DNA of 64,000 nt from Balanoglossus misakiensis (lineage: Eukaryota; Animalia; Hemichordata), in assembly GCA_040954595.2 (NCBI GenBank), contig CM082584.2, forward strand, positions 8,509,146-8,573,145, given 5' to 3'. The notes beneath the pieces were generated by a model. The model was not told the DNA's origin. It did no database searches and saw only the letters and a list, made by a program, of their open reading frames with translations. This document shows, in pieces, positions 14,901-60,500 of this stretch (within the stretch, counting starts at the first letter, position 1; each line of letters opens with the position of its first letter). The position numbers and the translations under genes are program-made.

Positions 14901-15124
14901 ATCACGGAAATGCTCATGTTCTGTCCAAAGCAAACCATCTCGAATTTTAATAGTCGAAATAATTTGTGTGGTCAGTACAGATCTGTAACAGGAAATAAAC
15001 CAGGTTCGCCTACACCGTTACACGTGCATTGAAATTAACACATCAGACGTGACAATAATCATGTAAACATACACAAGTTCATAGCACAACACATTCAGTC
15101 ATTGTGGGCGTGTCCTGAACTTAC

Positions 15125-15467: not shown

Positions 15468-15801
15468 CTTGACTGAACTTGGAAATAGACAGTACACTTC
15501 CTGTTAGGAGCACACGTACGTAATAATATATATTGCACACGGATTTATCCACCTGTGACAGCGATCACAGCCGAGCACAATTTGATTTGTCGCTTACTCA
15601 ACAGATCTGGTGTCTGTATTTAGTCCGAAAAGGTACAGGTGTGTAAGAATGCTATGTTGACACAACTAAACAACCGGGAAAGTTCACGTGTTTTCGATCA
15701 CTTCATTCATAATCATGGAGAAACCGTTCAGGCACCTCCGATTCGCTTGCGCAGCAATAACACTGACAGTACCGATGCAAACAACCCGGTTACTTACTTA
15801 C

Positions 15802-27206: not shown

Positions 27207-28761
27207 TTAAACCCAGTGCTGTTGTTGGGCGAGAATAGGAAAGAAATGTTCATCAACATATCCGAAGTTTGCTGACAGATAGGTGGGGCCGAAATTGTCC
27301 CATTCACAGGACAGGGGCGAAATGACGTCTTGTTCTTCGGAAAGGATGCGGTGACAGCGGGCGATGTTCAGGTCGCGGTGTTCGTACTCTGAATCCAAGC
27401 CTGGTCTGGTCACCATGCTGGTGTTGGATGACACGATGCGCTGCGAGCACCCGGCGCTGGCACCGAAATCGGAATCCAGACCGGGCCTGGACACCATGCT
27501 CGCGTCGGAGGACACCACTCTGTGCGAAAAGCCGGCGCTGGCTCCGAAGTCCGAGTCTAAACCAGGTCCCGTGGATGTCACGTTGGCGCTCGACTCGTTT
27601 AGACTGTTTTGAGGTGCGCATGTCCCGGGCTGACAACTTTGGACAGAAATCTGGAAATAAAAGTGTGAGATTTTTTTTCTTGTAGATTATCGTTCAAATA
27701 AGGCATATGATAAAACCTTTACGGCCCTGGTACGGGTTTTGCGACACCTCGGGCCGCAATACACGTATCAGGGCCGTAAAGATTACAACAACTACAACCT
27801 ACACGTAGATCATCAGATCCATCCGTTCCCTGAGATGAGATACATGTATATAGGATATCAAAGCTTTTTTGTGGACAGCAACACTTGAATCACTTTAAGA
27901 AGCACTCACTTCATTATTGTTCCACATGCTCATATTTTGTAAACTTCGCAAGCTGGCGTGGATGTCTTCGACGACACTTTGCAAACTGACGCTTCCGCGA
28001 CCGTCGCTCATGCTCGGGACGAGCTGAGGCAGACTTGCGCACGTGCACGTGCTCGTCATCGACGTGGTAGTAGCACGACCGCTGGCCGAGGCCGTGATGG
28101 TGCGGTCCACTTCGAATATCTCCAGCGACTTGGTTCGCGAGCGGGATTTGTGATCGTACAGGCCGAACCCGAAGACGTGGGTGTTCTTGCTGTCCTTGAC
28201 GAAAGCGATGGTGGGGTCCGAGTACGACTGGAACCCCATCGAATTCCTCTGGAGGTTGTCGATGACCACCGGTTTCATCTTCCGGTAGTTGACCGGGCGG
28301 TCGTGGTGGTGGACGTTTGGGTCGGAGTGCACAATACATGGGTTGGACGTCGAGACGAGGCGGGCCACCTTGGCTGGGAGAATGTGCGATTTCAGAGCCA
28401 TGCGCTGTTTCTCCACCGTGACGGCGGCGGGGCTTGGAACCTCGTTGAACCGGGCCGAGTGTGCGAGCAGTCTTCGGTTGGACATGGCCAAGACGCGGGG
28501 ATCCGTGGCGCGGCCAGCCGGTGGTGCCACATTGGTGGCATCCTTCGGGCGACGCTTGCAGCTGTCGCGGTAAAACACGACGAAGTGGAAAATCAGAACC
28601 CCGACCAAGAGGACTCCAAGTGCACTCAGGGGAACGATGAGGCCGATATCCAACGCAAGCACGCCCTGCTCATCATCGCCGTTCTCCCCATCTCCGTTGT
28701 AGTCATTCTCGCTCTGGTAAAGGACAACATTCGCGGTCACACTCCTGCCAGTTGATGTCAT
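27207..28761 (-). CDS. Uncharacterised single-pass membrane protein with a long disordered cytoplasmic tail (exons 28761-27910 and 27650-27207; the true start may lie upstream via an acceptor near 28843)
   Basis: GC-rich long ORF with TM IGLIVPLSALGVLLVGVLIFHFVVFY followed by RDSCKRR. A phase-0 intron (GAA|GTGAGT...TTTCCAG|ATT) joins the last exon in frame. Confidence 0.75.
27717..27781. repeat. Intronic hairpin or mini-MITE
   Basis: Inverted arms CTTTACGGCCCTGGTACG and CGTATCAGGGCCGTAAAG, matching at 17 of 18 positions. Confidence 0.75.
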
Positions 28762-31250
28762 TACACCGAGATCTGTACCCGTTACTGCTCCAGCTTCACC
28801 ACGACCGAAAGAAGCCAACAAGCCGGAGAACAACACGTCTTCTTTCAAAACAGAAGTTGTCAGATACTACTAGGATAGTAATAACAGTGAGTTCCACCCG
28901 AGCCTTCGAGAAAATTGATCTTTTCGAGGAAGCTTTCCTGGGACCACTGAGGGCTTAGACCGTGGTGAGACAAAATAATTTGAAGGGGAAAAATCGCCAA
29001 TCACAGAAAACCTTGCAAGATAGCTGCAAGTCTGACGGAATCACAGAGCACGTTCATCACTAAAGAAAGCCCCTGATTGGCGGTCCATTCTCTTGTTAAC
29101 GCGCATGCAGACAGGTGCAAAGCAGATGCACGGAATTCATCGGTTATAATGACGTAACGCACTAGTATACCAATGAAAGTAACTCTATGAGCTGACATGC
29201 AGCGGTCAATTCAAATCATAGACAGACTACTGTCTATGTTCAAATGAATGAGTGACGACACTATACATTTATATATGTCAACATGACCTAACTTGAAATC
29301 ATGATCAGTTGCAATGACTTGTGATACTAGATATTTAACCGAATCGCATGCACCCGGCTATTTTTTATCAATTCTTCCGTTGTATACTGTGAAGGCAAAT
29401 GTCACTTTAAAACTTGCCCGGCAAATTATTTTCCCTAGGGCGTCCAACTAAAGCCCATGAGCAGTGACTTCAATCAGGGGCTTGGACCAAGTCCACGCTT
29501 GGTTGAAGTGAGAGCTTATTTCTTGGGCGTGATCTTATAACAAAAAAGAACTCCCAAGGACGTCACCAATAGGCCAATAAACCCTTTGAATAGATTTGAC
29601 CGAGCGGGGTCAGTGCGTTCCGATCGGTGCATGATCACAAACGTTTGCATTTCTGAGTTCTTCCCTGTGAGTGTCGTCACCCTCATGTCGTCTGGCTCCA
29701 AAACACATTTCCATCGTCACTCAGTCACCGCTTCGTCTGTCGTCCTTTCCGGGAATCGGTTACGTTGTCGCCGTCACGTCTTGATTTGACGTCGACCCCC
29801 GGCCCGACCTCACCACCACAAGATTTTCACGCCCTGTGACTATCAGGCGTTTTACGAGCACGGGGAACCACCGTTTGCGAACAATTATTTCGCACGATGC
29901 GGGTAATCTTTCTTTATTCTTGTTCATATATTTTGAATGTGTACAGTTTCCCAACCCTTAACTTTTTTTCTAGAGTTTTCTAGTAGCTGAAGTAACACTT
30001 ACAGCTATCAACCGACATTTAATGCATTCGTCCTCAGACGGACACGGACAAGTTGTATACCTTTTTTTTTCAGTCGTGCTAATGGCCTCACTATTTTCTC
30101 GAATGTTTCCAGCATATGCCCAATAATCCCAAAATCTTATGCTTGTTGTGAAACTTCTTCTGATGTTGTTGGAAAACTGTAGTGCGCTTGTTTCATTTTC
30201 ACTGCGCGAGTATATGAAAAGGCAATGCATACCTGAGGTGATTCGAATCCACCATCTTTAATTCCAAAGTCCTACACACAATAGGGATGGGCCATTTTAT
30301 ATTGGGGCGGGGGCCGGATGAAATGCAAATGCATAGTGACGATAATTCCACACCAGGCGTTACTCTGAAGCAAGTTTTGGTATGGAGATCCGAAGCAATT
30401 GTTTTACTTTTAAAACTCTCAACAAATTAACAACCAGACTGCATTGGCGGCGACAACAGTCGCCAACTGTCCGGGAAGCCACGCACCCGTCCGTACAACC
30501 AAATTGGGCCCGGCCGCCGTGTTGTCATCGCTCCTTGTCTCCATGTCTAGTGACCTCATGTGCACTGAAGCATAGACAAGCTCAAACAAATAACTATAAA
30601 ATCACACAAACTAGAACGAGAAGTATCCTTCTAATGTCTATTATACAGTATTCAACATACCAGGTGAACCGGGCCGTCGTTTAGGACTGCTGTGACGGCG
30701 GCCATTGTAATCGCTGAAGCATGGGTGACTCCCGCGCGAGTTATTGTCACCATAAAACCAGTTTCAGACTTTTATGAAACAATGTGTTGTTCTCATATCT
30801 ATACTTTCGCACATGTGACATCGGTACGAAAATCGAAACGTGAATTTACGTCAAATGGCATAATATTACGTCAGCAGACGTAAGATATTTTATCTGCTTC
30901 TTCTAATAGTACCTGTGCCATCGATAATATATCAAGAACGCCCGTGGTTGCACGGCCCGGCTAATTTTACTGGCGGCACCTGTATACGTCAGCGTCACGC
31001 AGAACTTGAAGAGCGAGCTAAATCTGGAAACGGATATACGCGTGACGAAGCAGTTATGTCCTCAATGTTAGGTTCAGCATGAATATGTTTTGTTCGGTCC
31101 CTTTTTCCAAATGAAAACCTCACCGCTGCTATTCGCCACGCCCGTATTAACAGACTGCTTTCAAGCGAAGAATAGCATCGCCTGGTCTGAATGAGTGAAC
31201 GTTTTGGGGATGCTTAGTTACATTGTTGAAAAAAGTCCGCCACAGGTAAA

Positions 31251-32917
31251 ATGAGGGCGAGAGAACGCCGTGACCCCAGTGAAGAAAAGCGACAGGTTAG
31301 CCGGTACAGATTCTTGTTTGCCGACAAAGGTTTCGGTGGCGTGCAAGTCCCCTTTCACTCTTATAGTAAACATCACACGCGTTACCCAATCTGTTGGCGT
31401 CTTTTCAAACAACACACAGTATACGCATTACCTGCCACGCACACTTTAATTTGTTCTTCTGTTTCAGACGCAAGTGGCGTTTTTCTTGGCGTTCGGGTTC
31501 TGCTTTTGCTCCTACGTCCTTCTGGTCGGGTACATTGTATCACAGGGGTGGATGAGGAAGACGACGTTACTGGATCTGTCATCAGTCAGCAGAGACTCGC
31601 AGAGGTATGTTTGCGTGAATGAATAAAAATACGAGCGGCATTTTTATGTCGTTCGAGGTATAAAAAAACTTGTTGAACTGTCGACAGTAAGAACACCGCT
31701 TCCAATCTCTTTGTTTTTTTCATTTTGAAATTTTGTATGCTAGGCCTGGGATAATGCCATATTTTTTACAGCGAAACATTACTGGCAAATAACTTGATTC
31801 ACCTAACGTCATATTCCTTCGTTGCAGAATACCGTCGACGTTGGCCACAAAAACCCAAGGCGTCCCACAAGAGGCTCCGTGCCAGGCTACAACCAACTTA
31901 GTCTTCATAAAGATCCACAGAACTGGCAGCACCACTCTGGCTACACAACTGTACCGCTTCGGTTACAACAGAAACCTCTCGTTTCTCTTCTCCTCCAAAC
32001 AGAAACTCGGACATTTCAGGCAAACGCCCGTGACGTCACACTCGCAGCCAGAGATGTACCCGCCCATAGGGGTGACCTACGGTGACTATGGCAACTACAA
32101 ATTCAACATTTCCGCCGGACATCTGATTTATGGTAATCGCAACGCCTTTGACTCGCTCATGGCAGGGCAACCGAGATATATAACGCTTCTTCGAGATCCC
32201 GTAAGACAATATGTGTCTTATTTCTATTTCTTTGGGATGACAAATCGATACATGAAGGGCGTCAAATTTCCATCGAAAGATCAATTCGTCGGTTTAGCAA
32301 CATTTCTCAAGCAGCCGCTGAAGTATAGCGACTTACAAGTGAAAAGTGAAGCCTTCATCCCGAATAGAAATCCCCAGTTTTACCAGCTCGGCTTGCCGTT
32401 AAAACAAATGGGGAACCCGGACTACGTGCAGGCTTCAATCTCACGGATAGAGGAAGACTTTGACCTTGTCTTGATTGTGGAGTACCTGGACGAATCTCTC
32501 GTGCTCATGAAGAAGCGGTTCTGCTGGGAAATGGGCGACATTCTGTACTTCAAGATGAATGTCAAGTACCAGAGTCCGCTGAAAGTGCCCGCGGATCTCC
32601 GGCGACAAATACGGGTGTGGAACAGCGATGACGTGTCCCTCTACGACCATTTCAACAGAACCCTGTGGAGGAAAATACAAGAGTACGGACCGACATTTCA
32701 GGCGGATCTGGATGCGTTCAGAGAACGATTAAAAGATATGAAAAATGAGTGTGTGGCTGGGGAGGCTAATAAGAGGGCGTTGCCTCAATACGAGCTGAAA
32801 GCCAATGCGTCGCGTCAGTGCCGCGAGGTGAACATGGATATTTTTGCGCGTTTCGCTCAGATAACCGGAAGACAGAGAATACCACAGCAAAAGAGAAGAA
32901 AAAGAAATGCAAAATAA
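31251..32917 (+). CDS. Galactose-3-O-sulfotransferase (GAL3ST family), type II Golgi membrane protein; exons 31251-31295 (or 31210-31245), 31468-31604, 31828-32917
   Basis: Signal-anchor exon QVAFFLAFGFCFCSYVLLVGYIV; 5'-PSB motif NLVFIKIHRTGSTT; 3'-PB motif LRDPVRQYVSYFYF; FDLVLIVEYLDESLVLMKKRFCW; WNSDDVSLYDHFNRTLW. Confidence 0.92.
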
Positions 32918-34383: not shown

Positions 34384-35061
34384 CTGTGTATTGTAGGCCC
34401 TAATACCAAGCAGTACAATGGGCATTTGTATTTATGCTCTCTGATACATCCAAAGATAAATGTTTAAAATAGTTAACGATCTGAAAAAAAGCCTTCCTTT
34501 AGCTGTAACGAGGGAGATATTCTATTTTAATCATTGCTGTCATTTTATGGCCTTCTCACGAGAAGTCCTGGTGGACCGCTTGGCGGCGCTTGAAAGAACA
34601 CCTAATGAATTGACTGCGGGAAGAAGAATTCGAACCCAAGTCAAACTGTGCAAGAAAAAAGTGGCAATATCACATGGGCGTTTGCTACCCAATGTCATCA
34701 TCTAATGAACGGAAACTGTCATCATCTGCCTACGAAAATGTCAAATGACAGCGACAGAGCGTGGCAATTTCCTCATGTCTTTGAAATACCCCTCTGCTAT
34801 ATAGCGCAGCCAGCGGCGGAATTGGCCAGGGCAGCAGACTATCGTACCTGGAGACGCATGTGTACGGTGGGTATATACATGTACATGTACACGGTATGCT
34901 AATTTCGTTATGGTAATTACTAATTAAGATAAAGACATTAGCATATCGTTTATATCTCCACTATATAACTGCGTTTCCACAGCTAGTTCACTCGAAACTT
35001 TTCGCCTGGATAAAGAGGCAGAGACTCCTGGCAATACAAGTCTATCCGACATCAGAACATC

Positions 35062-36866
35062 ATGAACGAGTGCGGTTGGGACGTTTACTCCACAAATAGA
35101 CCGATTCAACAAAAAACTGGTCTGGAACTGCTAAACTTGCTGGAGGAAAATGAATGGGGAGACAATGATATTATTCTTGACGTTGGTTGTGGTACAGGAG
35201 AGATGACAAAACTGATGGCCGAACGAGCAAACGTCCAAGCGGTAGTCGGTAGGTATTTTTTCTAGTGCTATAGAATATACGATGGTAGACTTGCTTAGTA
35301 CTTGCTATGCCTATATGAACAGAGAAACATCCGTTTGTGTAGATCAGAAGAGTTTGTAGACGGACATCCCGTCTACAAATCTAATTTCAAAAGTGACAGC
35401 TTCTGGGTAATTGAAGCAAGAGATGTCAAACTCCCCGGCTTCGTTGAAACAATACATTAAATTTAAGACAAAGTTTGAGAAAAAAAAAATAATTTCATTG
35501 TCTTTCTTGTTTTGTGATTTTTTGCAGGAATTGACATTTCCTCCGGTGCGATTGACTTCGCCCGCCGCAACAACTCCGTCGAGGGCAAGACTAAATTTCT
35601 CGTGGCTGATTTCACCAAAATACGAGAAACGCACAGTGAATTTGGAAATGCCTTCACCAAAGTGTACAGCAACATGGCTCTCCATTGGATGGAAAACACC
35701 GAGAGAAATCTCCAGAATATATTTTGGTGTTTGCAACGGGATGGGATAGCTGTCTGCCAAATAACGCAGAATTCCGTTCTGGGACTCTATTACGGAGGTA
35801 ATCCAGCAAAACTCCAAAGGTGGAAGAAGTTCTTGCAGGTAAGCAATCGACCGATACTCAATAACACCGAGGAATTCATCGGTTAGACATCCCTTCAACT
35901 GCGGAGTCGGGAGGGAGGGGGGGGGGGGGTCCTTGGTAAAAATCTTCCAGCGGGTGGTTCAAGTGCATCGCAAATGGCTTGTCCGAGTCAGAACGTATAA
36001 CGCATTATGTAATCGAACGACTGTTTATATTCATTCAGAATGGCTTTCTCACCACAAAGGCACGCAACGTGGCATTACAGACTGCTTAAAAAAGTGAATT
36101 CGCTTATTGTGTTACTATTAAATGGGTGGTCACGTAATCCAGACAACAATAGAGCCGCCAAATTGAACGACATGTTAAAACATTACCTCTAAAATGGCTG
36201 GCAGAATTCTGCCAATGAAAAACCAACAACTTGGTTCACTGACAAGCAAGGCAACTCTACTTACAAATTGTGCGGTAAAACAACTAATCGTCAAATCAAA
36301 GTGGCGATTTTCTTCGCGATTGAAAATACCCCGGTGTTGTATTAAACGTCAAGCATTTATGATGAACATGGTTTTGGGTAACGGACGTTGACATTTCCGT
36401 ATACTTCTGTATTCTGAACACAAATAGGACTTTAAACCGGCGTTAAACCTGTTCAACGGCAACCTGCAAGACATGCAAGATATGATTTCACGGTGTGGAT
36501 ATCGGGAAAGCCCGCGAATTCTGACGCCAGTGTGTTCAAAGTTGGTGTTCGAAACAAGAGAGATGGCAAAAGGTAAATCATTTTTGGCGAAACCTTGTGT
36601 CTGCACGTTTAGTGGTTGCTGACGTCAGCGTGTCTTTCCTGAATCAAGTCACAGCTAATTTCATAATAACCATGGATTACTTTTCTGTTCATTCCCCTTT
36701 CACAGCGTTCCTGAAACCTATCCTGGGACATCTGAACCACATACCGCCAGATTCCCACGATCTCTTTCTGGAGGACTGCTGTGACGTGTTTCACGACGCA
36801 TCTTCCACTGGTGACGGCAAATGCCAGTGGGTGGACAACTGTCTCCAGTTTAAAATGGCAAAATAA
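35062..36866 (+). CDS. Class I SAM-dependent methyltransferase, juvenile hormone acid O-methyltransferase-like (exons 35062-35248, 35528-35838, 36428-36572, 36706-36866)
   Basis: Motif I ILDVGCGTG, motif II VVGIDIS, N-terminal YSTNRPIQ, and FTKVYSNMALHW. Splice phases are consistent. Confidence 0.88.
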
Positions 36867-37124: not shown

Positions 37125-40100
37125 TCATAGTTTTGAACTCTCTTCTCGCTCGTTTTCAGTGCTTTCATCGGCAGAGATGTCACGCGAGTCTCTTTTGCCT
37201 CTGCCGAGGCTGCTGAACATCACGAGAACGACGCCTTTAACGAATATCAGACACTCAATTGTTGTTATGATAGATACGCCTATGTAGAGTCCAAGCAGTC
37301 CACCTAGGTCACTGGCGAAGTCTTCTTGCTGTATTTGAGGAAAGAAATAACTCCATAACTCTGCGTCAGGCAACCAGTTCGAGCATATGCAAATTTTTGT
37401 GTGGCCTATTGATACGAGAGGTCCACATTTATATATTTGCTGGCAACATTCTCTAGTCAAATAGATGTACATTACACTTGAGGCGATGGACAGAAAGTGA
37501 ATTTCAAAAGACGACACCCCCAAGTCTAAATTTCTGACAAATTCAATTTTATAAAAAAGTACTACAGACAGTCTGTGCACCTACATGTATACTCAGTATA
37601 CATGTAGATGTACTTTATACAATAAAACCAGCCGACCAGTGCGACCTTTGACACAGACAGTCAACTTACCTGATATCCAGGGCTCTCCTTTACTAAATCA
37701 GAATTTAATGTCTCGAAATAAACCGACACGAGAGCAAGGTTCTTTCTGAAAGTTAATCAAAAACTGGTCAGTAAAGGTTATTTTACTCGGAAATTAAGTG
37801 AATCCGATAAGCTACCTTACGACAATAACTAACTGTTCATACTTAATACTCACTGTGCAGAAGCCATATTAGTTATTTTCTTCGTCTTAGGACTGATAGA
37901 ATGTAAGTTTTTCAGTAGTTGGTTCTGATGGAAGAAAAGTCATGGACAAAATGTATGTTTAATCTATGTATGCTGGCTTTTATTGTCACTTAATCGGGAG
38001 CAACGTTTGATTGTTTGCTTACCAGGTAACTCGAGGACGGCCACGTTGACATGGAAACAGTAGAAGTATAGGTACGGTCTCTGTGGACAATAATTAAATG
38101 TAATGGTGATTACAGGTGTGCGATGTAGCTGTCATGAAGGGGATGAAGGACAAATACGTGTACATCCCCAGCTCTGCACGAAAACACTTCTATGCATATG
38201 CTAGCCACACTCAAACACACATGTCTTATGTTAATCGAAGAGGATTTTTTTGTTAACTGTCAAATGCTTCTCGTTGTGTTTAAATGTTAAATGTAATAAC
38301 ACGGTCACTCTGTGTGGAGAGTGACCGTGGTAATAACCGCTTACTTGCAATGGGGAAGGCAGTCACAGTCCACAAGAGCTTTTTGATAGAAATAATGAAT
38401 TATTTGTCTGCAGGCCTCCTGGTAAATATTCAACATTGAACACTGCGGGTGCTCACTGTCGAATGTATCCACACAGTTGCAGTAACGCACCATATAGTCC
38501 TGTACACACTTCTTGACACAACTCTGCAAGTAACAATTGGTTCAATTGGATGATGTACATGCGTTGTGCAGGATTCGCACAGGAGGGAGGCACGCTGACT
38601 ACCCTAGACTTTCCTCATAATTTAGGAGCAAGGTTGCTACTATTATTAAAGCGTAATCTGGGACGACTGCATTACGGGTCAAGTGAGTGGAAAATATCAA
38701 ACTCTTAATCACCGTACCAGGCTGGAATAATCGTAGCCTTTGCTTCCAGACGAATAGTTACTGTTACAGAAGCCCCACGGCTGACCGAGTCTCTCAAAAT
38801 GTTTCTGTTGAGGAAAAAAAAGAAGTATGATAGAACATTTTACATACATGTATATGTATATGTATTCAGTTTAAACTGCAATGTTGTACTTATCAAAGCA
38901 AGCTATCACATATATCCATGTACATGGATTTGTAGACCAACCTGCTTAATGGCGAAAGACGTAGCCGCCCCTGTCTTGGCAGTCAGCCCAATGTCTTCTG
39001 GCCAAGGCATTTCATTATTGTCGTGTATGGCTACGCGAACACCCGCCGACTGACCGAACACTCCGAGATATTCCTCTTGTTCCACGTGTAAAGTTAATTT
39101 CAATCCTAGATGTAAACACATAAAAATATAGGTTTGTCTTTTATGCTGAATGAACACCCGCGGAACTGCTTAGGAACCGGTCGCATATACAGTAACCACT
39201 CCGCATTTGTGTTCGTATCGCCGGACGCATATTTTGAGCGCTTACCCGAGTTGGCCCCGGCCGTATGCGAGGTCCAAAGCCAGTCGTCGCCGCTTCCTCG
39301 GTTGAAGGTGTAACAGTTGCCGTAGACGTCATGCGGAAACCAGGCGAACTGACTGAGAGAAATACAGGACAGAAGTACAACTGCGTTAACACCTGTTACT
39401 GCAATGAGGAATTGCGTCATTCACAGTTCATTGTGTCACGTCACCTTTTCATGAACTCCATGTGTCTTGTACACTGACCTGTAATTACAGGGCATCCCTC
39501 CAAATGTACACTGTAGGATGAAATCCTCGGCCTGGTGTCCGTATTCCTTGATCTCGTCGCCGGTCACTTTTAGCACCCTGCGCAGATCGCTGAAGTCAGG
39601 CGTGGAGCTGAACGTGATGAAACCAATGAGGTCCGGCGGCATTTCCCTTTTGACGCGAGTGAAACCGGGGTCGGTGAAGTACCGATACTGGAACTCGTCA
39701 AAGTAACTTTGGTCTTTGGTGACGTCTCGGAATATATCGGTCCAGTTGCCGAGGAATAACACCTCGCGTCCTGCTTTCCTCTCAGCTTGAGGTAAAATGT
39801 AGCACAGAAAATAAAATTAATATCATTTATGTTTTCTGAATACACCGCTTTCATAAGTTTAGCTTCCTCATGCAATAAGCTCAATCGAAAAAGACGAAAA
39901 AGAAGGTAATGTATTATGATAGTTGCCACGGAATTGCCAGGTCAACGCCGCACACAAGACTCGTATCTCAAGAAATGCGACTTTTTCCTGATTCGCAGAC
40001 TGAGAAACCCTGTAGCAAGAGAAACTGTCAATTTTCCACGATTGGGGCGGAGCTTGGCCGCATACAAGACTCATATCTCAAGAAATGCGACTTTTTCCTC

Positions 40101-43100
40101 ATTCTCAGACTGAGAACTCTGTAGCAAGAGAAACTGTCAATTTTCCACGATTGGGGGCGGAGCTTGTATCACGTGGACTTGTTGCATGTATTGGTACTCT
40201 CCTCGACATCCAGAGGCAGAAGAGACATGGCGGTTGAACTGTGAGGACCGTGCTCTCGGTTGCGGTGATCTGAATTCGCACTTTACCTCTATATTTCTTA
40301 TATTTTCGTTCAAACCCTTCTCCACGTTTGTGGGAACACTTTGTCTGTAACCTCTGAGAGTTTTAGTTGTCTACGGATCGTAATTCCGAGGTTTTTCTTG
40401 GTATTTGTGTGAGCGCAACGCTCAGGTCAGTCGGTCGGTCTTTTCAGCACGTCTCTTAGCGCACGTTCTGCCGTGCACAAGGTCAATCGAACCAGGGCTT
40501 GTAACGGACCGGTCTACGCCGTCAAGGCTCGACCGTGCTACGTTTACGCTACCGTAGAGTTGGCTGTTGGTCCAAGGTTCGTCATTCACTAAAGCTTGAC
40601 AATTTTCAGGGACCTCAGTCCGACATAATTTCCGTTACATTATATTTAAGTAATAGCGTATTACACTACCAACATAGCGGTCTTTTTTAATTTTCTGTTT
40701 TGCTTGAAATGTCTCACAGAAAAGTAGGGTCATGAGGCTGGTGATAGGTTACAACACACACAAGTTCGTCTTACCGCGGTACACACATTCGGGCCAGTAT
40801 TCATCTTCGCTACCTATGCAGTTGGAGTGCGTATCACACACGTGGACTGCATCGATGCAGAAACTACTGTTACACTTGAAGAATCCTTCGGGACATTCAC
40901 CTTTCTCGTCGGCAAACACTAAAAAAATATACAAAACAACAAACTCTCAGTGGACAATCAGTTTTGACAATTACAACTTCTCAGAACATTGTCATTCGAT
41001 GTAAAGAATATGACTATACGCCATAGCGCAGACATAAATGCCTTGAAAGAAGTTTGTTTTTCGGTATGGGGGATATACATACACTTATTGGTTTGCCAAC
41101 TTACCATTTTGGCCTTCACACAAGCCGCAGCTTAACCTGCAACAGCTTTTCATGAACATGCTATTTGTTTCACACTCCCCTCTTTGAGCCCAGTTCGGGC
41201 AGAGCTCATTGCAGTCGGTGCAGTATACTATGACGTGAGAAAGAGGAAAACGTGTCAAGTTTGACAAGCGTAGCAATGGTCATTGCCCGGAAAGATTGTA
41301 TTTTAGATCAACAGCGTGTAATCTTTCACTGTAAATGTATAAGGAGGACGTCTCGAAAATGTATGATGCCTGTACATGTATATCATATATGGAGATATAG
41401 AGCAATGTGATTCGCGGCCATGAGTGACTGCGTAGGTGGGTGTCTCTGCTGAACACGACCCATAAAGACTTGCGCAAGTGTCTCATACCATGGTTTTAGG
41501 AAATGTCTATGAGACCAACAAGGTGCGTGTAACACCAGTCATGACTTACTATTATTTGTACAATCCTTTTCGTCCGAATGGTCTCCACAATCAATGTAAC
41601 TATTGCATCTCTTCCAACCTGCTATGCACTCACTATTGGAACATCGGAACTCCTCTGCCGTACACTCTCCTGGCCAATAATGAAAACAAATAAATTTGTT
41701 TCACCATTTTTCGATATGTGGTCTGTCTGTGTGTCTTTCGCAACTTTCGCATTTGTCATGCTTACATGGGTAAAACTGATTTCTGCTTTGTCTAGGCTAA
41801 GTTCACATGCTAATGGCAAAGATTGCGTTGGCTTTTACACTCACGATGAACAACACGCCTCAAACACTGTGTATACGTTTCACGATACGAAAATACTCAC
41901 GATAAACACACGTCGCCTCGTCGCTGTTATCGCCGCAGTCGTCTCTCCAGTTGCAAACGGCTTCTTCTTTAATACAGCGGTGATTGTCGCATTTAAACTC
42001 CCATGGTTGACAGTCACCTGACCAAGTCAGAACGAAGTAAAATGACAGTTAGCAATTCCCAAGACATTCGCTTGGGTTGCACCATTATCACTCCGAGCTC
42101 TCTACTTATATATGACCACTATCTACAGTGTTTGGTGTGCCTGTACTTTGGAATTTCATAAGTGGTTGATAGGCACAAAACTACTTACGAAATTTGCAAC
42201 CTTCTTCATCTGTTCCATCGACGCAATCGGAGACGTAATTACACTTGGCCTCTAGTGGTTGGCAGAGCCCGTCGTCACAATAAAACCCAGTACAGTGGTT
42301 AGGACTGGCGTTTTTATAATCTGAATATGATAGGAAGTATATACATCAGGAAGTATATACAAAGTGCATATCGACAAACCAACGGAAGACATATGTCTAA
42401 CAACCGAGACTGCCTTGCGCCCCTAATCATATACAGTAAGTGTTTTTATGGAAAGGGTTTAACTGTGCATGTACGTCGAACATACCGCAGTTGACTTCGT
42501 CTTCGCCCTGGTAGCAATCTTCAATGCCATCGCATCTTTTGGTCCTTGGGATGCATATTCCCATCTGTCCGCCACTGGCACATTTGAACTGGTCCCTGCT
42601 ACACGCATAATGGTTGTACTCACAACCGAACTCGTCACTCGTATCTGGACAGTGGTAGATTCCATCGCAGACGAGAAATCTTTTTACACAGTGAATGCCT
42701 GAATTGCATTTGAAATCTCCAGGTTCGCACGGCACTGTACCAAAACAAATTAAAACGGAATGCATTGTGTATTGTTAAGTTAAAGAGCTGAAACGATAGT
42801 TCACTATTATACTGCCTAAATGAACAAATGTGAAAGACCTTGGCCATTATTTTGAATATGGCTTTATAGAAATCTGTACAACACATACATACACACATGC
42901 ACACATACATACATGCACACATGAATAAATGCTTGTATGTATACGCACATGCATACATGAACTGAACCAGCGATTCAATCGTGTCTTACCATAGTAAGGA
43001 GTGAAGTCTCCATGTTGTATCATGGCCACGAACTTGAAGTATCGACTATTTTCCAAAGCGGAAACTTTCAGTTTGTTCGTGTTGCAGATGGTTACAGCGG

Positions 43101-46100
43101 GGAACACTAGTTCTGAATTGGGAACTTCGGTGATGCTGATGTCAATCGGGAAAGTCAGATAACGCATCAACATTGTGCTACCTTGCCACAGGAAGAAAGC
43201 TAACGCAGTGGCGCAGACGATGGCCCACACACTCATGGCCCCCTTTGTTTTGGCGGCGCAGATTCTAGGCAACCCATGCCACGTGGTGTTGCTGGCAAAA
43301 TCCCGGGTCAATGAGCTCAGTTCATTGTACGCTGACGAGCTTTTCGCCCCTCTTGCCGATGTGATTCCGCTGTCGTCGCCCTCTATGTTGCCGAGTTCAT
43401 CTATGCCATCTACATAGTTGTCTCTGTCATGTCTACGCCCTCTACGTCTGACTTCACTGAAATAAAAAGAAACCCATTGATTATCATTGCCCGTTTTGCG
43501 TTTGGCAATAGCTTTATATTAGTAGATCTTTTGTATCGGTAAGAGCAATTATTTTTTACAGGTGGCTGTTTCATAATTACTTTGCCGTATTATCAGGATC
43601 CGTCTTGTCTGTGGGAATAACATGTTCTTCGGCTAGTTCTATTTCATAGTGTGATTCCTGTAAGATGAAACCATTGTGAGAGGATGAATACATCATAGTC
43701 AAGTGAAGCACAGTTTTAAATATATCATAATTAACTGCGATGTAATTTAACGGGGTTGCCATGAACGAACGAACAATGAAACGTTTAGACTCTCACCTCA
43801 CTCGTCTGCTTCGATTCCACAGGCTTCGATCGGCGACGTCGGCAAAGCACCAACGTCATTGTGATGGCCCAGATTATCAAAATGAAGCTTAACTGGGCTA
43901 AAATTATCACTAGAGCTAAATGAAGAGAGACGAGAAAATTGGAAACCGAGTGTCTTCAGTGTGTAAAGGAATGGATAAATAATTGAAAGAATATACACAC
44001 ACACATTTGTTCTGCGGCTATAAGAATGTATACGATGCACAGCAGACGAAAGAAGCTGAATATCATACCCAAATGCCAGGAACAAGTTTTTCCAAGCCAG
44101 GCCCACGAACAACTACAGGTAAATTCACTGCAGTCGTTCTCAAGTTCCATGCAGTCTCCACCGTGGTTACAAGGCGAGCTTGCACACGCTCCTTCATCTG
44201 TTGATGTGAAGAGACGGAAAAGGGTTATACATTTAATATTATTCTGTGGTCGCTGATGGCAACACAGTCTGGGATCCACATGGGCATAAATCACGTGCTA
44301 TTTCTGATTACATTGCCTCATAATCGACCAGACACAAACATTATTGTAACTAAAATATATAGAACAATGCATGGTATTAGGGGTTATGCCTCGACTATTA
44401 CAACAACTTCTCATATAGACCGCCGCGCCTTGGATGACAAAATATGCCAATTGGAAGCACACTCCGAAAAGCACTGATCCATAAACTGAACAAACTTACC
44501 GACTTCGCAGTTGTCCCCAGAAAAACACCTTTTACATTCACAGATATGTTCTGTACACAATTGAGGGTCAGTAGTACATACGCCATCGTTCACACATGGA
44601 TTAGACTCGCAGGGGTCAATGGCTGAAATTGAAAGAGATTGTTGTGACACTTAAAATGCAGTGTTGCCTTGGACAGACAATGGGAAATCTTGGTCTATAT
44701 TCGCAAATCCATAAATGCATGCCAACCAACCAACCAACCGAGCAAACAAACGAACAAACAAATATTTCAAAAATACGACGGAATTTGGGGGTGAGGATAA
44801 GGTCCCACGATTCATATCAGATTGTTGTCTAAAGAAGTCGACAGTGTTCCCAAGTGACTATTCCGAAAAGTTTCAGGTGACATTCTAATTGGTGGAAATA
44901 CCTTGTTCACAAAATGTCCCGGTGTAACACGCCGGGCATTCACAGACGTATTCCATGCAAGATTCAGGACTGGATACACATACCCCTCCGTTGCGGCAAG
45001 GAGTGAAAAAGAGACACGGGTCGTGTACGTCTGAAAAAGAACAAACAAACAAACAGCATTAACATTTTGATCAAACGGGTGTGGTATTTGCTTTCAAAAT
45101 TACTGTAGTCGAAAGTGAAATTACCCCTCAGACAGGAACTGTATTCCATAACCCAGGTTGCAACATGTTTGCCACATCTAATCCACCAATGACCGTGTCT
45201 GTCCTGATCACGTGCCATTTGTATACAGGTGCAAACTATCGGCCGGCTGATGACGTCACATTTGCCGGGACTTGTTGCACAACACAACATTCTGTATCAC
45301 TCACATTTTTCACAGTTTTGTCCAGCATAACACTCGTCGCAAACACAGGAGTACTTGATGCACGACTGACTGTCTCTGTAACATAACCCGTGCTCCCCAC
45401 AAGGATTGCCTTCGCACGGACTCATCACTACAGGCGGAAAAAAACACATCAGCATAACCCTCATTAAAAATGTTCACAGCACGACAATGAAAATTGCAGC
45501 GTCCATGAAGTAGCATTTAAACAGTAAAATGTCTCAGAAATGTTTTGGTGTAACATGTTCAACGACGTAACATGACTTACACACGCTGCAGTCGGCGCCG
45601 GTGTAACATCCGGGACACGTGCAGGTATAATTGCAGGCAGAGGCGTCACGTAAACATTGACCACGCCCACACGGATTGGGATAACATGGATCGAACCCTG
45701 CAAAGTGATGACAATTTGATTAAAAAAATATTTTGTTCCTCATAGAGAGATAGAGACAGAGACAGACAGAGTAAAGAGACAAGGGAGGGAGAGTTAGAGA
45801 GTGGGGGAGAGAGACATACAGACAGAAACACTGAGGAATTGAAAGAATGACACTTACGTTGTTGACAGTTCTTCCCGACGAAGCAGCCCTGGTCATTTCT
45901 GCAAAAGCAGTCGTACGCTTGGCAAGAGTTGTCGTCGCGCGGAGTGCATTCCGTCTCGAAGCCGTCTTTCCGACAGGGATCCTCGGCACAAGGGTCCATG
46001 TCTGAAAGTGACACAAAACGTTGCATTATCTCAAAATATGGAGGCCATGTGTTACATACACTATATAAGTATAGAAACGTTGACAGGAATACTTAAACGT

Positions 46101-49100
46101 GCATACTGTAAGACAACGATCGACGAGTAATTAGTATGATATGAAAGAAAGGGTTAACATCTTTGTTACTTCCCCGATTATTTCATCTTACCAATTTCGC
46201 AGCGCTCGCCACCATAGCAACCGTCACATCTACAAATGTAATCGTCGCACGTCCCGCTCTTCACTTCGCACTTCCCGGAGTTTAAACAGGGCTGTGTGTC
46301 GCACACATTTAGCGCTGCCAAAACAAGTAGAAAGTAAAGCAATCAGCTATAGATACACACCACATTTCCTGAGCAAGAACACAAAGCTTCTCACGACATG
46401 TATTGATTCTGTATTAGTCTGTGCACGAGAATAGCATGTTTTGGTAAATATGCAAATGGCAGATTGTGTGCATTTTAATGGGAAAAAGAATCACAATTCT
46501 ATGCAAACATCATATAACACGCGCTCATCTATTTTGGGCTACGCTCCGACATTTACTTTTATGTGTTCCAAGACACTAACAAGTCAAATATTGTGCTTGG
46601 TTTTTGGACAGGACGCCGTAAATCAACCAAAAAGCTGAAAAAAGCCAAGCAAATTGACACTTACATGTTTCACAGTCACTTCCCGTGTAGCATGGTGGGC
46701 AGAAACATACATAAGCGGAGTATATACTGATGACAACCTGACAGGTACCACCGTTATGACACGGTTGGGAAATGCAAGGGTTTTCGCCTGCAAACAATTC
46801 AAAAACAATGTCTCAAAAATTACAATTAATCATTTTACTAACGCCTCCCAGTTTTTTTTTTCAACCACACACAACTTCCATCCCGCTTGTATGATATGAA
46901 AGTAAAAAATCGCCCAAAATGAATAAATGGTACAGACCGATTATTCATTTTATGCAGGAAAATTCGCATTGTAAACGGTTCATATACCCGTTTGGTTTCA
47001 CTTACTCGTCTGACGTTGAAGGCTGGTCCGCATATAAACATGTCCGGCCTCGTCCAAGGCTTGCAAGGATATCGTGTAATGCGTGGCAGACCGCAGTTCG
47101 GTGAACGAGTACTCGCCCTCTAATCCCCCGGAAGTGACGTTTATCGGGAAGGCCTCGGCAGCGTCCGGTTCGATGTCGAGTGTGTAGCCGCTCGGCGGTT
47201 CGGCATTTCCGGCGGCTCCAGACCTGATCACTCTCCAGCTCACCATTATGACGCTGGGACTGACGTGTGTCATGATTAACTCCAGCCCCTCTGGCGATGC
47301 TTCTCCTGTAAATAAGAACAAACGGCCCTGTTAGCATGGTGGTCGTATGAAACAAAATCGAACGGGAATCTAAATATTGATTTTCAATGTTTGATTTCTA
47401 CGTAATCTGATATACGCCCAAGAGCAGATGGAAATAAAATGTTTAGCTAATTTCACAATAGAGTGAATGTGGATTGCGAATTTGGTTTATTTCCTTTTTT
47501 TATATTTTCATAAGGGCATATTATATTGATATTGTCACGGAATTGCTAGGTCAACGCCGCACACAAGACTCATATCTCAAGAAATGCGACTTTTTCCTGA
47601 TTCTCAGACTGAGATACCCTGTAGCAGGAGAAACTGTCAATTTTCCACGATTGGGGGCGGAGCTTGGCCGCACACAAGACTCATACCTCAAGAAATGCGA
47701 CTTTTTCCTGATTCTCAGACTGAGACACCCTATAGTAGGCGAAACTGTCAATTTTCCACGATTGGGGCGGTGCTTGTATCACGTGGGCTTGTTGCATGTA
47801 TAGTGACTCCCCTCGACATCCAAAAGCAGACGAGACATGGCGGTTGAACTGTGAGGACCGTCCTCTCGGTTGCGGTGATCTGAATTCGCACTTTACCTCT
47901 ATCTTTCTTATATTTTCCTTCAAACCCTTCTCCACGTTTGTGGGAACACCTTTTCTGTAACCTCTGAGAGGTTTAGTTGTCTACGGATCGTAATTCCGAG
48001 GTTTTTCTTGGTATTTGTGTGAGCGCAACGCTCAGGTCGGTCGGTCGGTCTTTTCAGCACATCTCTTAGCGCACGTTCTGCCGTGCGCAAGGTGAATCGA
48101 ACCAGGACTTGTAACGGACCGGTCTACGCCGTCAAGGCTCGATCGTGCTACGTTTACGCTACCGTTGAGTTGGCTGTTTGGTCCAAGGCTCGTGATTCAC
48201 TAAGGATTGACAATTTTCGGGACCTCGGTCCGACATAATTCCCGTTACAATATTGATGTATAAACAATACTTTGTTGCGAATCTTACGACATACATGTAC
48301 AATATTAATAATAGCCAAAGCCTGGTAAATTTTAAAGCATGTTGAGAAAAATAGGAGAATGTTGGTGATAATTATAATAGCGTTTTTTGAGTTATTTTCG
48401 TAACTGGAGGGTGGTCAAATCATCACATTAGGTCTATAACTAGCGGGTGTTGCATATTATATGATTTAGGTGACTTTGCACTGCTAGCATCTAAATTGTC
48501 CCATGAGAACTTTCCACAGGTTATTTTCAATTATTTGTATAATGACAGGTTTAGCAAAATTTCATGAATTAAAATCGCATTATTGGTATTGTATTGATTA
48601 AAACGGGTGAATGATTCTCAGATCATCTGTCACAACTAATGAAAAAACCTTGCGTCCAAACTGTTATTAGATATGCAAATTCGATTGATGTATCTTCACA
48701 TCTGTGCGCCCTGAATGTAAACTACCGTAATGATATTGAAAGTGAAGTAAACAATGGACCTACGCCATTTGCATGACACACTCATTTTCTAAGGGAATAA
48801 TGATGTGCCATTTTGATAATTATCACCAGTCCAGTGTCGTTATTAAACCCATCATGAATATTCACCGCCAATTGATGCCCAGTCGCTCATCTGAGGTACG
48901 CTGGCTACAAAAACACGACCTTGCGTTGGTGAGAATATTCGTTAGATCACCAAAGTAACTTGTAGCTATACGGACAACGAACGTCTCTATCTCGTACGTT
49001 ACCCATACATGGGGATGGTTGCGTTTGGCTTTTCAGTATACTATTCTCGTTGTCGTCGGTCTGTTTTGTTTTGTGCTTTTCTCGTTAATCTTGAATTATT

Positions 49101-50273
49101 ATGACCCCTACAGTGACGGCACATGCGTATTTTGGACATCGTAAGGTCGTTTCGATCGCCACCTGTTTGAAGCGTCAGTGATTGGAAATGTGCCAGTAAT
49201 GCAACTCGCACGTTGGTCGTTACGACCGATTTTCCATCTCTGCTTCAAATTTTCAAAGCCTGAAAACTTGACCGATTTTTCAGGTAAATTGAATTTTGAC
49301 GACACGTTACAGATCCGGGTGAACATCAGTTCTGGCATTCATTTTTGTGTGAAAATTAGTTCTCCTATTTGAGGTAGTGATACCGACAGTAAAAACGCTT
49401 CATAATGTAAAAAAGAAGAATCCTATAATAAGCCGTGCATGAACCTAATGCCGTTTAGAATAATGATTTATGAGGGCAATATTATTACGCCTACGAAGAC
49501 GGCAATGCATAATTGATAACATAATTGAAATGCTTCTTCTGACCAAAATTGTCGATAGATTATATCAACAATAGCCATAACAATTGTACGTACCTGCACA
49601 AACGATCGGATAAGTCACAAACGACTAAATTAGCATACATATAAATATTCAATGTGATCATTAAGTTACCTTCATAAATCAACACATGACTACATGTATT
49701 CGAAGATAACCCTCGGCAATAAAAATGAGACACTAAGGCGTATTTTCATTAGTGTCATGTGTGTCTGTCTTTTAAAAAATAAAATTTGATTCCCGTGTTT
49801 TCTTAGTTTTAAAAATTGAAAGAAACGACACAGTGATGACAATTAGTAAGCCTTCGCATCATATAGTTAGACACAAAACAGAAAATTATTGAACCGTATC
49901 ACAAATGATGGTTTGACACACTGTGAAAAGAACAGGCCATTTTGGGTATTTTTGGTTCTAAAAGTACATGGACGAGAAGAGTCACCATGTAAATGGTACT
50001 TGCAGACCCACGTGGTTTACTAGTACATGTAAATACCGCTGTGATAAGCTTTACAGCGACCGTTCTCTATGCGTGTGAACATCATTACATGTGATTCCAC
50101 CGTTTTACAATGTATGAATTATTATAGTAAGGTCGCAGTACAAAGTTAGCACGGTGTCAGCAATTCACCGAAAGGTGCTTACCGTTTTGGGGCAGCTGGG
50201 CCCACAACCCCGGCAGACACAGGGTAACAACAAGCGGGAAGATCAACTGTGAAAAGCGAACGGGTGTCATCAT
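37125..50273 (-). CDS. DEG/ENaC (ASC family) sodium channel with N-terminal signal peptide-FN3-8xEGF-extra TM, and 5 LDLa plus 1 ShKT inserted in the ectodomain; 27 exons
   Basis: Channel core: FASNTTWHG and TM1 plus [10 protein letters not shown] (43456-42990), [34 protein letters not shown]...GVRVAIH, Cys-rich thumb, and [15 protein letters not shown]2 (37328-37125). Other exons: signal 50273-50183, FN3 47305-47006, eight EGF exons 46787-44069, TM0 43915-43797, linker 43657-43581, LDLa 42734-42486 (two domains), 42320-42189, 42017-41901, 40918-40775, ShKT 41227-41105. Every intron is GT-AG and phase-compatible. Confidence 0.88.
39924..40639. mobile_element. Solo LTR, copy 1, intronic
   Basis: TG(C)CACGG...CCGTTACA termini, about 716 bp, highly similar to 47533-48249, with an internal 110-bp tandem duplication. 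No clear target-site duplication. Confidence 0.8.
47533..48249. mobile_element. Solo LTR, copy 2, probably Ty3/Gypsy-type, intronic
   Basis: TGTCACGG...CCGTTACA termini with a perfect 4-bp target-site duplication ATAT (47529-47532 and 48250-48253). Same orientation as copy 1. Confidence 0.85.
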
Positions 50274-57380: not shown

Positions 57381-57570
57381 TCCGAAGAAAACAAATAGAT
57401 ATATTATATCTTGACCATCTCCCTGCAAACTGTCTAGATACTGGTCCAGAAGTCCAGTGTACGGTTCAGCGCGCGGGTTGAGCACTGATTGAACGGGCAT
57501 TTCGTTTGACAGGGTTAACTAGCTGCTTCCAAAAGTTGCAGTTTTTTTTTCTGCCGATCTCGGCGACAAA

Positions 57571-60500
57571 ATGTCGGTCAACGGGGACGCAAAAATGAAG
57601 GCGAGCGACGGCTTGAGGCATCGCGCTTACCATGAAGTTGACGGCGCGGCGGCGGTGGTGGTCGCGGACGACTCGTCGTCGGAGTTCGCGGTGGCCATGA
57701 AGCGACAGATCGGCCTCTTCCCCAGCATCATGATCATCATGGGTTCGATCATCGGCTCGGGCATTTTCATATCGCCCAAGGGCGTCTTGGAGTACAGCGG
57801 GTCGGTGGGCACCGCGCTGGTCGTGTGGTCCCTGTGCGGCGTCATAGCAACCCTGGGCGGGATGTGCTACGCGGAGCTGGGCTCGTCCATCGGCAAAGGA
57901 GGCGGCGAGTACACGTACTTGAACGAGGCCTTCGGCGAGTTCCTGGCCTTTCTCATGCTCTGGGTCAACTTCATCATCGTGTCGCCAGGCAACACGGCCA
58001 TCATCGCGCAGACCTTCGCCATCTATGCCATAGCGCCGTTTTATCCGGACTGCGACCCTCCGCCATGGGCGGTTACTCTTGTGGCGGAGTCTTGCATCAG
58101 TAAGTGAAGAATTTTTTTCTCATGCAACATCACGCCGTTTCATATCTGGCTTATAATCCGTAAATCAATATTGAACTGCCTCCCTTCAGACGTCTTCTAA
58201 TCCTATACACATAACTTGAATTCGATAAAAATCTGAAATCTCTAATATCACATTGCAAAATCAATCCCATGTTCTTAATCTTGTTTACAAACGTGTTTAC
58301 ACCTTTTAAATATTTAATTGCGACTAAATGGACACCAGCAGTTGTTCGATGAAATGGCAACCCTTTGTCGTAAACCACGACTTCTTTCACGGCAAAAGTT
58401 AGCGACTTTGGCTCGCGAGAATAGTCTGACAACAGTGTGCTTGGACGCGTGCCCCGTTCGTGTAAATTCCAACACAGTTATATTTAAAATATTAACCGGT
58501 GTGTTTTATCGTTGAAGAGATAGGTGTATCAACAACATGACGATGTAACTAAGGAAGCCAATGTTTCCAAAGTACAAGAAATAGAGGAAGTATAGAAATA
58601 CGTCTGCGATGACGGATATAGACGAATTAAATATAATGAAAGTCACTTTCAATTGACCTGTTCTGATCTAGACTTTGCGATATTCCAGAATTTCAGACAA
58701 GCTGTTGACATTACAAGCTCAAATATGCAGTGGCTTTGGGAACACGTATTTCCACTTCTTTTTATTCTAAACCGTCTTTTTCAGTTCTGGTGTATTCTTA
58801 CAACTGTTACAGCGTCAAAGGAGCAACCTGGGTTCAGAACGTCTTCACTGTGGCCAAGGTTATCGGTCTTGCCATCATTATAGGTGCTGGAATAGTTTTC
58901 CTTTGCATGGGTAAGTCTCTACGCACTGTCATATTGGTGCTTGTTCACCAGAGAGCCGAAAAATAAATAACCTTTATCTTGTGCCTGCTTCAGTATCACA
59001 CACGTGATATGACCGACAGGTCGCGGTACCAGTATGCCCTGGAATTTCGATCATAAAGTCATAAACCCACCGTCACAGTGGCGGTTCGGCCTATCAGTGA
59101 GATGATACGGCAACAGGGACGTCTGCCTAACTGGAGGTGATGATTAGACCACGCTGAAGATTAATGTATTTTTTCTGACCTGGTTTTTTAGATCCCGACC
59201 ACCTGATACGCGGAGAGGCCCTGAGATTGATAACTGAGTAAAGTTGTAACGTGACAACTGATATGGCAATACACAATACACTTGTCAATTTTCACCGCTC
59301 AATATATATTATTTATCGCAAATAACGTATTTATTTACGTTATCAAGAACTAGTCATTTGAAGACGTTGTAAATCAAAGCGATGCAAGGGCAGGCGATAC
59401 CATGTCCCAGTTTTTCGTATAAAATGCGACTATGGTACCAGCTTGTTAATTTCATATAAAGACTCTTTCATGGCTGGTACATCTATTAAGTCTTTGTTAC
59501 CATGGCATTTCGTGAAGAATGCCTCAACGGACAGGCGCATTAATGTCTTTAAGTGTTTATTTTAGATTATGGTCAAGTTGTCAACTAACAAACTGAACGG
59601 TACTTCATGCCAGGTCTTTATCAAAAACAAGAAATGCAATCGTGTCTGACACGCATCTGTGATAACGAGGACCAACTTGGAAGGAAAACCCAACCCCTGT
59701 CATGAATGGTTTAGCCCAAGCCCCCCCCCCCTCCAAGACACCTCCATGCCAAGGTGTTCTGAGATAAGCCGTCCATCCACATCATCCCGTTACGTTACAT
59801 TACATTTCCTAGAAACAGTGGCCCTTCCCCTAGTTCCAGGCCTCCCTTACCAATTACCAGTATGTCCAGGCCGCAAGCGTGGCTTTTATTTTACCACTTG
59901 TGCCTGCGCTGCCTCAATACTGTTCGCTTCGTTTATTTGGCAGTTATAGTGATATTAATTGACAACAATACAAATATCCGGACTTTTGGCCCGTCAGTCT
60001 CTTGTGATGCGCCGGACACAAAGTTTTGATAGTAAATTGGGTCACATGAAGTGATGGATTTCGGCCTGCATGATCAATACACGTGATAGGTGGCGTGGTG
60101 GCGGCTGGGTTGTGGCTGGGGTTCACCATTCATTTACATCGTCAGGAAACTATATCAAGACGCATTTCAATAAACACAAATGACGCAGTATTTTAATATT
60201 TTCGCTCATAGGTTACACCGAGTATCTTGAGGACGCTTTTGCCGGGCCTGGGACCAATGTTTTGCGTATATCACTGGCTTTTTACAACGGATTGTTTGCA
60301 TATGTCGGATGGTACGTTTCAAGTCAAAGTACACTATTATTGCATCATTCTTGGTGCCATTCCCCGGTTTACTTTTGAGACTTGCCCCCTTTAAACTTTG
60401 TACATATTAATACACGCATACATACACATACACTGTTGGATGGATGGATTATGAATGGATGAAACAGGTGGATAAATTCTTTTTATTAAACGAGTCCTCT

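Follow-up and report, generated by a model that had tools for sequence, protein, structure and literature searches.

A predicted three-pass DEG/ENaC subunit with an FN3-EGF stalk, conserved in acorn worms

Gene model and domain layout

The window analysed here is a stretch of 64,000 nucleotides from the acorn worm Balanoglossus misakiensis (contig CM082584.2, positions 8,509,146 to 8,573,145). Its minus strand carries a gene predicted to code for a channel subunit of the DEG/ENaC family preceded by a large, receptor-like N-terminal region. Rebuilt from the window, the gene model has 28 exons, one more than in the original prediction, and runs from an ATG at 50273 to a stop at 37125 (4203 nt, 1400 aa). 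All 27 introns are of the GT..AG type, and the only stop codon in the frame is the one at its end; the adhesion-like and channel halves thus share a single open reading frame, as had been proposed. Another in-frame stop is found 7 codons upstream of the ATG, and the 3' end is bounded by an ATTAAA at 36916 and by a methyltransferase gene. The latter (35000-36866, plus strand) is apparently convergent, its last frame ending at 36866, ~260 bp past the stop of the channel gene. No paralogue of the three-pass gene was detected elsewhere in the 64-kb window.

The predicted protein comprises a signal-like N-terminus, an FN3 domain, eight EGF repeats, an additional transmembrane helix (TM0), basic residues, a 97-residue linker and a complete DEG/ENaC subunit, so that ~590 residues precede the HG motif. 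An insert of ~290 residues in the channel ectodomain contains six LDLa and one ShK domains, in the order five LDLa, ShK, LDLa. This layout agrees with the original prediction and is supported by Pfam, cysteine spacing, our own hidden Markov model (HMM) and hydropathy. The Pfam scan, run exon by exon (27 exons), identified fn3 in exon 2 above the cut-off (E 2e-6), ASC in exons 13 (E 2e-18), 22, 24 and 28, the six LDLa and the ShK. EGF-type matches were obtained in four of the eight EGF exons, above the cut-off in one only, and all eight parse as EGF both by cysteine spacing and with our HMM. Hydropathy peaks at 1.71 in the N-terminus, 2.80 in TM0, the strongest of the protein, 1.88 in TM1 and 2.27 in TM2.

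Conservation of the fusion in acorn worms

A search with exon 13 retrieved the 1446-residue protein XP_070563558.1 of Ptychodera flava, which is colinear end to end with the window protein and 66% identical to it over 1399 columns. By part, identity is 53% in FN3, 66% in the EGFs, 57% in TM0, 40% in the linker, 86% in the pre-TM1 segment and 77-82% in the channel core. The same layout was found in XP_006825152.1 and XP_077862007.1 of Saccoglossus kowalevskii, XP_077981954.1 of Glandiceps talaboti, and XP_070563559.1 and the partial XP_070564444.1 of P. flava. The predicted fusion is thus conserved across families of acorn worms and not peculiar to the window model. The single-gene, three-pass reading of the original prediction is borne out by these full-length orthologues in three other species and by two annotation pipelines, its membrane topology being predicted.

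Six of the 29 matches to the core among long proteins have a TM0, namely three from P. flava, one from G. talaboti and two from distinct S. kowalevskii genes, P0031 being a newer model of one of the latter (P numbers are our handles). With a Saccoglossus core as query, 6141 DEG/ENaC-like representatives were found, and the best 150 of the 6141 were examined, a depth at which distant three-pass channels of other phyla could not surface. Altogether we scanned 191 proteins (190 fetched and the window model, isoforms included), 137 of which have an N-terminal ASC block. More than 150 residues precede this block in 13 of them, including eight three-pass rows. P0056, P0094, P0142, P0181 and P0189 have neither EGF repeats nor TM0, and three of them look like merged tandem models. 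Among the proteins scanned, ShK was seen only in the three-pass clade. In the ESM Atlas, P0001 of P. flava had no usable match, and the stalk gave only generic EGF clusters <0.9.

Trees were computed on the channel core alone with IQ-TREE, in two runs drawing on the 161 rows left once merged models, fragments and isoforms had been excluded. The three-pass rows fall into a single clade (100/99) both with LG+G4 (53 of the 161 rows) and with a mixture model (32 of the 161), and on the channel-core tree the predicted architecture therefore has a single origin. Nematode EGAS proteins, which the original prediction proposed to include, are absent from the trees and from the fetched proteins. The clade comprises three paralogue groups, two common to Ptychodera and Saccoglossus and one to Ptychodera and Glandiceps. 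It falls inside a group of LDLa-insert channels (100/99, mixture-model run), where it is either nested in the two-pass LDLa group or sister to it (71/77). The closest relatives retrieved are LDLa-insert channels of ambulacrarians. Successive RefSeq accession numbers and contigs of equal length suggest that the paralogues P0001 and P0005 of P. flava, and P0003 and P0021 of S. kowalevskii, are clustered. Glandiceps is a spengelid, as is Schizocardium. The split between Ptychodera and Schizocardium is put at >370 million years in a passage of PMC11175523. Because of this date and of the spengelid affinity of Glandiceps, the fusion is probably at least as old as that split.

Whether two adjacent genes or alternative transcripts, coding for an EGF receptor with one membrane pass and a channel with two, might have been merged by the predictors, with the fused product rare or absent, hinges on the junction. 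Phase compatibility is weak evidence here because exons 11 and 13 could be bridged by any of four open exons. Against the P. flava linker, the exon 12 adopted in the model scores 33 (as high in 6 of 5000 shuffles), and the other three candidates, one of them a sub-part of exon 12, score 8-13. Aligned across the junction introns, the whole linker scores 107 with one 5-residue gap, which none of 5000 shuffles reaches; it is thus conserved as coding sequence across both junctions, and its length is 91-101 residues in all three paralogues and four species. The junction introns, of 153, 139 and 124 bp, leave only 124-153 bp for ending one gene and starting another, and there is no AATAAA or ATTAAA in 44200-43230. 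The linker of the window protein has neither Cys nor Met, and no Met stands at a conserved place across seven rows. The two annotation pipelines agree, since the Saccoglossus model of the second, Sakowv30011650m (supplement of PMC10507113), also runs from EGF through TM0, linker and TTWHG to TM1.

Several observations weigh against a fused product. All relatives are gene predictions whose RNA support is not visible, and no junction-spanning RNA read was seen. Intron 11 contains three ATGs in frame with exon 12, and if this intron were retained a stop would follow after 3 residues, yielding a single-pass product; two-pass and single-pass isoforms are therefore possible. Intron 12 contains a weak AATATA/TATAAA (43520-43518), introns 10 and 11 have comparatively weak donors (4.6 and 5.7 bits, within a range of 1.1-11.9), and the P. 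flava model P0049 begins downstream of TM1. The N-terminal hydropathy peak is weak as well (1.71 in the window protein, <1.6 in P0001); hydrophobic N-termini are also present in P0003, P0004, P0005 and P0021. A search of sequencing runs for 42400-47400 listed no RNA dataset, which is evidence neither way. A low-sensitivity search for shorter proteins covering the junction region in P0001 gave 2 matches among 2015 candidates, neither of which spans the junction. No alternative P0001 isoform is on record at 90% identity, as its cluster has one member. On balance, the gene model very probably yields a real three-pass product, and the merging of neighbouring genes or of alternative transcripts is a highly improbable explanation.

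Stalk, membrane segments and channel core

The EGF repeats are distinguished by an additional cysteine pair, with one Cys in the C3-C4 turn and one in the C5-C6 loop. The inner repeats have both in every case parsed, with a cysteine pattern that missed a few repeats, whereas the first EGF has only that of the C5-C6 loop (5 of the 5 rows holding this repeat) and the last only that of the C3-C4 turn (7 of 7 rows). An unrelated EGF protein has neither in any of its six repeats. In tandem EGFs, the C3-C4 turn and the C5-C6 loop of neighbouring repeats touch. The asymmetric loss of the pair at the array ends thus predicts disulfide staples joining each repeat to the next, with no free Cys left, and hence a stiff rod. 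In the AlphaFold model of the Glandiceps stalk (predicted local distance difference test, pLDDT, 76; predicted template modelling score, pTM, 0.29), FN3, EGFs and helix are seen, and the top fold matches are Notch and Delta EGF arrays, along with FN3 domains. Pfam scans revealed no DSL, LNR or ankyrin domains, calcium-binding EGF motifs number zero in seven rows, and the stalks contain no RGD adhesion motif. Each row has 2-6 sites conforming to the O-fucose consensus. In one paralogue, represented by P0005 (residues 30-140) and the N-terminus of P0021/P0031, one or two extra Cys-rich modules starting with WRDDLRCG precede FN3, which indicates that the tip of the stalk has diversified. These modules have no Pfam match at 0.001; we take them to resemble chitin-binding type 1 modules.

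TM0 of the window protein is predicted to be an uncharged helix of 26 residues followed by four Arg. Across seven rows it has 23-27 uncharged residues with a net charge of +4 to +12 behind them, and position 475 is Gln or Glu in all seven, which suggests a specific helix contact. TM0 is helical in both AlphaFold models of relatives. A complex prediction of TM0 with the channel half scored 0.00 twice, without controls, and we count it neither way.

The channel half has all the sequence and fold features of a DEG/ENaC subunit, i.e. an ASC ectodomain (Pfam E 1.6e-76 for P0001), the HG motif, as TTWHG or TSWHG before TM1 in 7 of 7 rows, and a TM2 with GVS or GIS in all seven rows that include it. 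No complete row has lost the HG, SDxGG or GxS motif. Modelled from the last EGF to TM2 with 58 rows (mean pLDDT 79, pTM 0.68), the P. flava protein shows the TM0 helix, the linker, two short pre-TM1 helices, TM1, a confident core (pLDDT mostly >85) and a TM2 broken at the GxS motif. Its closest folds according to Foldseek are FaNaC1 (8on8), ASIC1 (6vtk) and ENaC (9blr), with E values of 1e-21 to 1e-25. The order of LDLa and ShK domains is the same in all full three-pass relatives. Directly after the insert, an R-V-x-R motif (about 39654-39643, minus strand; aa 1027-1030) is kept in six of six aligned relatives. It may be a site for proprotein convertases, such as the finger domain of ENaC has.

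Table 1. Features of the three-pass gene and neighbouring genes in the window
Feature	Coordinates	Strand	Basis or remark
Exon 1: start codon, signal-peptide-like N-terminus (aa 1-30)	50183..50273	-	Hydropathy 1.71
Exon 2: FN3 domain	47006..47305	-	Pfam fn3; FN3 fold matches of Glandiceps model
Exons 3-10: eight EGF, one per phase 1-1 exon	44069..46787	-	Extra cysteine pair
Exons 3-6 (EGF)	46787-46665, 46314-46192, 46001-45858, 45697-45581	-	
Exons 7-10 (EGF)	45427-45305, 45030-44902, 44622-44500, 44197-44069	-	
Exon 11: predicted TM0 (aa 467-492), Gln475, then four Arg	43797..43915	-	TM0 starts in last codons of exon 10
Exon 12: bridging exon, predicted cytoplasmic linker	43581..43657	-	Aligns gap-free to P. 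flava linker
Exon 13: rest of linker, pre-TM1 TTWHG (about 43287-43273), TM1, first palm strands	42990..43456	-	
Exons 14-19: LDLa x5, ShK-like, LDLa in channel ectodomain	40775..42734	-	Pfam
Exons 14-19, individually	42734-42486, 42320-42189, 42017-41901, 41669-41550, 41227-41105, 40918-40775	-	
Exons 20-27: rest of ASC ectodomain	37670..39785	-	Pfam ASC; fold of P. flava model
Exons 20-23	39785-39479, 39352-39246, 39105-38942, 38804-38718	-	
Exons 24-27	38523-38345, 38080-38023, 37924-37854, 37745-37670	-	
Exon 28: TM2 with SDLGG and GVS motifs, short tail, stop	37125..37328	-	
SH3 exon	15099-15503	-	Neighbour
Tctex-1 domain protein	21710-22438	+	Neighbour
Galactose-3-O-sulfotransferase	31793-32917	+	Neighbour
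Amino-acid permease	57523-62370	+	Neighbour

Introns 19 and 1 of the gene each harbour a copy of a 730-bp element (39917-40643 and 47527-48253, respectively), the two being 93% identical. The element has an internal duplication of 110 bp and TG...CA ends, one copy is flanked by ATAT on both sides, and it is reminiscent of a solo long terminal repeat. Elsewhere in the window, 18409-19518 and 27895-28866, both on the minus strand, contain exons, without Pfam matches, of one or two further membrane proteins that look single-pass.

Possible roles of the stalk and comparison with known systems

The fused DEG/ENaC architecture, three-pass by prediction, is real and conserved, and apparently undescribed. 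What its stalk does is a separate matter; given a real three-pass product, we consider the case for an action on gating evenly balanced. We tentatively favour, a little short of even confidence, a DEG/ENaC subunit tethered by a stiff extracellular stalk, so that contact or force would alter channel opening. The signal peptide would export the N-terminus, with FN3 to EGF8 outside; TM0 would stop transfer with its basic residues inside, and the chain would return to the cytoplasm. The linker and the HG loop would stay there, and the channel half would thus keep its normal orientation. The subunit might trimerise as DEG/ENaCs do in general, its partners possibly including its two paralogues or two-pass relatives. 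Stapled to one another by the extra cysteines, the EGFs would form a rod reaching past the channel ectodomain, whose length we take to be roughly 25 nm from domain sizes, rooted beside the pore and starting 2-4 residues from the membrane. This stalk might tether the channel to the matrix or to a neighbouring cell. The least certain step is the coupling to the gate. TM0 may pack on the pore helices via its conserved Gln, or the stalk may keep the channel up against a binding partner of the LDLa/ShK insert; we consider both more likely than a pull along the floppy linker. The more specific picture of a self-tethered, mechanosensitive channel evolved in acorn worms, with three paralogous subunits forming a channel ringed by stapled EGF rods, with matrix or cell binding gating the pore through TM0, appears rather doubtful.

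Passages in the literature offer some background for a gating stalk. Extracellular tethers act in ENaC shear sensing (in a section of PMC6955349), anchoring to guidance receptors is required to activate nematode DEG/ENaCs (in part of 10.1101/2022.02.28.482179), and the HG loop lines the lower pore (in an excerpt of PMC7308080). The self-tether of the original prediction remains plausible as a hypothesis, the predicted disulfide-stapled stalk being consistent with it. Its proposed route from stalk through TM0 to the pre-TM1 region is less convincing. The linker is 91-101 residues long in seven rows, only 14-40% identical among them and predicted to be disordered (pLDDT <50), so that a direct pull along it to the HG region is unlikely. 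The divergence and disorder of the linker also speak against a gating stalk in general, as do the modest confidence of TM0 in the P. flava model (pLDDT 60-70) and the pTM of the stalk model, from which a fixed rod gains no AlphaFold support and disulfide distances cannot be read. In addition, two-pass relatives carry binding modules with no stalk, and the family therefore needs none.

The disorder and divergence of the linker would suit a real three-pass channel whose stalk only anchors or sorts it, for instance to a junction, a cilium or the basement membrane, with a soluble ligand, Ca2+, pH or a protease controlling gating via the LDLa/ShK insert, in the manner of its two-pass relatives. The latter hold diverse binding modules at the same insert site, and the conserved R-V-x-R motif would fit a protease. 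Nevertheless, the Gln or Glu fixed in TM0, the narrow range of linker lengths and the constant spacing between EGF and membrane suggest that geometry matters, and we regard this explanation as quite possible rather than probable. The protein might instead be chiefly an adhesion or signalling receptor with a Notch/Delta-like stalk, perhaps shed, and a non-conducting or accessory channel half. The top fold matches of the stalk, to the EGF arrays of Notch, Delta and Jagged, and the putative O-fucose sites are in line with this idea, which is nonetheless improbable given the intact channel motifs, a core that is the best conserved part (77-86% identity to P. flava) and a stalk in which neither DSL nor a calcium-binding EGF signature was found.

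If the three-pass topology is correct, it would break the rule of two helices and a cytoplasmic N-terminus that defines DEG/ENaC subunits, and such proteins would escape automated surveys in which termini are trimmed. Should the stalk gate the pore, it would provide a single-chain test of the force-from-filament model for DEG/ENaC; in oocytes, the tether could be removed, trimmed, freed of its staples or transferred to ASIC or ENaC with no need to reconstitute a matrix. Our analysis also brings to light many undescribed deuterostome DEG/ENaCs whose ectodomain has receptor-like modules inserted. We found no description of a three-pass or LDLa-bearing DEG/ENaC in the open literature, subscription journals lying outside the search. 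The main texts of the hemichordate genome papers PMC4729200 and PMC11175523 do not mention ENaC, their supplements not being covered, and the main text of PMC10507113, whose supplement was searched in part, has no match for LDL, EGF-like, egas, ShK or domain architecture.

With canonical members of the family (ASIC, ENaC, FaNaC, BASIC), the window protein shares the HG motif, TM1, the cysteine-rich ectodomain, TM2 with GxS and, by prediction, the fold. These subunits have two helices and short intracellular termini according to passages of PMC7933985 and PMC9949801. In contrast, a predicted third helix and a Cys-rich N-terminal region, predicted to be an ectodomain, are found in eight rows, and the LDLa/ShK insert is a further difference. 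The nearest relatives are uncharacterized two-pass DEG/ENaCs with LDLa repeats at the same insert site; they differ in having no EGF array, FN3 or TM0. The two-pass set (P0007-P0030, P0050-P0092) comes from hemichordates, sea stars and a crinoid, with amphioxus in a separate branch. Its ectodomain inserts include LDLa, kringle, PAN, CUB, TSP1, SRCR, F5/8, HYR and Xlink modules, and several of these channels are annotated as LRP2-like. As for Notch ligands and receptors, none of their hallmarks (DSL, calcium-binding EGFs, LNR, ankyrin) was found in the three-pass proteins.

EGAS-1 to -4 of Caenorhabditis elegans also combine EGF repeats and an ASC domain in one chain with a hydrophobic N-terminus, and they had been put forward as a partial precedent. 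The precedent is weaker than suggested. From its first 400 residues and its row in a published trimmed alignment, EGAS-1 appears to have no HG/TM1 block, only a TM2-type helix, and in that alignment the HG/TM1 columns are filled with pieces of its EGF region. The window protein differs by having TM0, linker, HG and TM1 between the EGF region and the ASC part. EGAS proteins are expressed in putative mechanosensory IL2 neurons (in the part of PMC9478639 available), RNA interference of egas-4 blocks a touch effect (in an extract of PMC12582246), and a passage of PMC5203786 terms them atypical and excludes them. That nematode EGAS homomers gave no currents in oocytes, as reported in a section of PMC10424705, is another point against a gating stalk.

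A tether serving a channel is common to MEC-4/MEC-10 with MEC-1/MEC-9, polycystin-1 and NOMPC. MEC-1 and MEC-9 are separate secreted proteins, and polycystin-1 is an adhesion-like ectodomain fused to a pore subunit. Polycystin-1 and NOMPC differ from the window protein in being TRP-type, and the tether of NOMPC is intracellular (in a section of PMC6955349). In the more specific picture of stapled EGF rods gating the pore through TM0, the three-pass channel would be a one-gene version of the nematode complex of MEC channel and matrix proteins.

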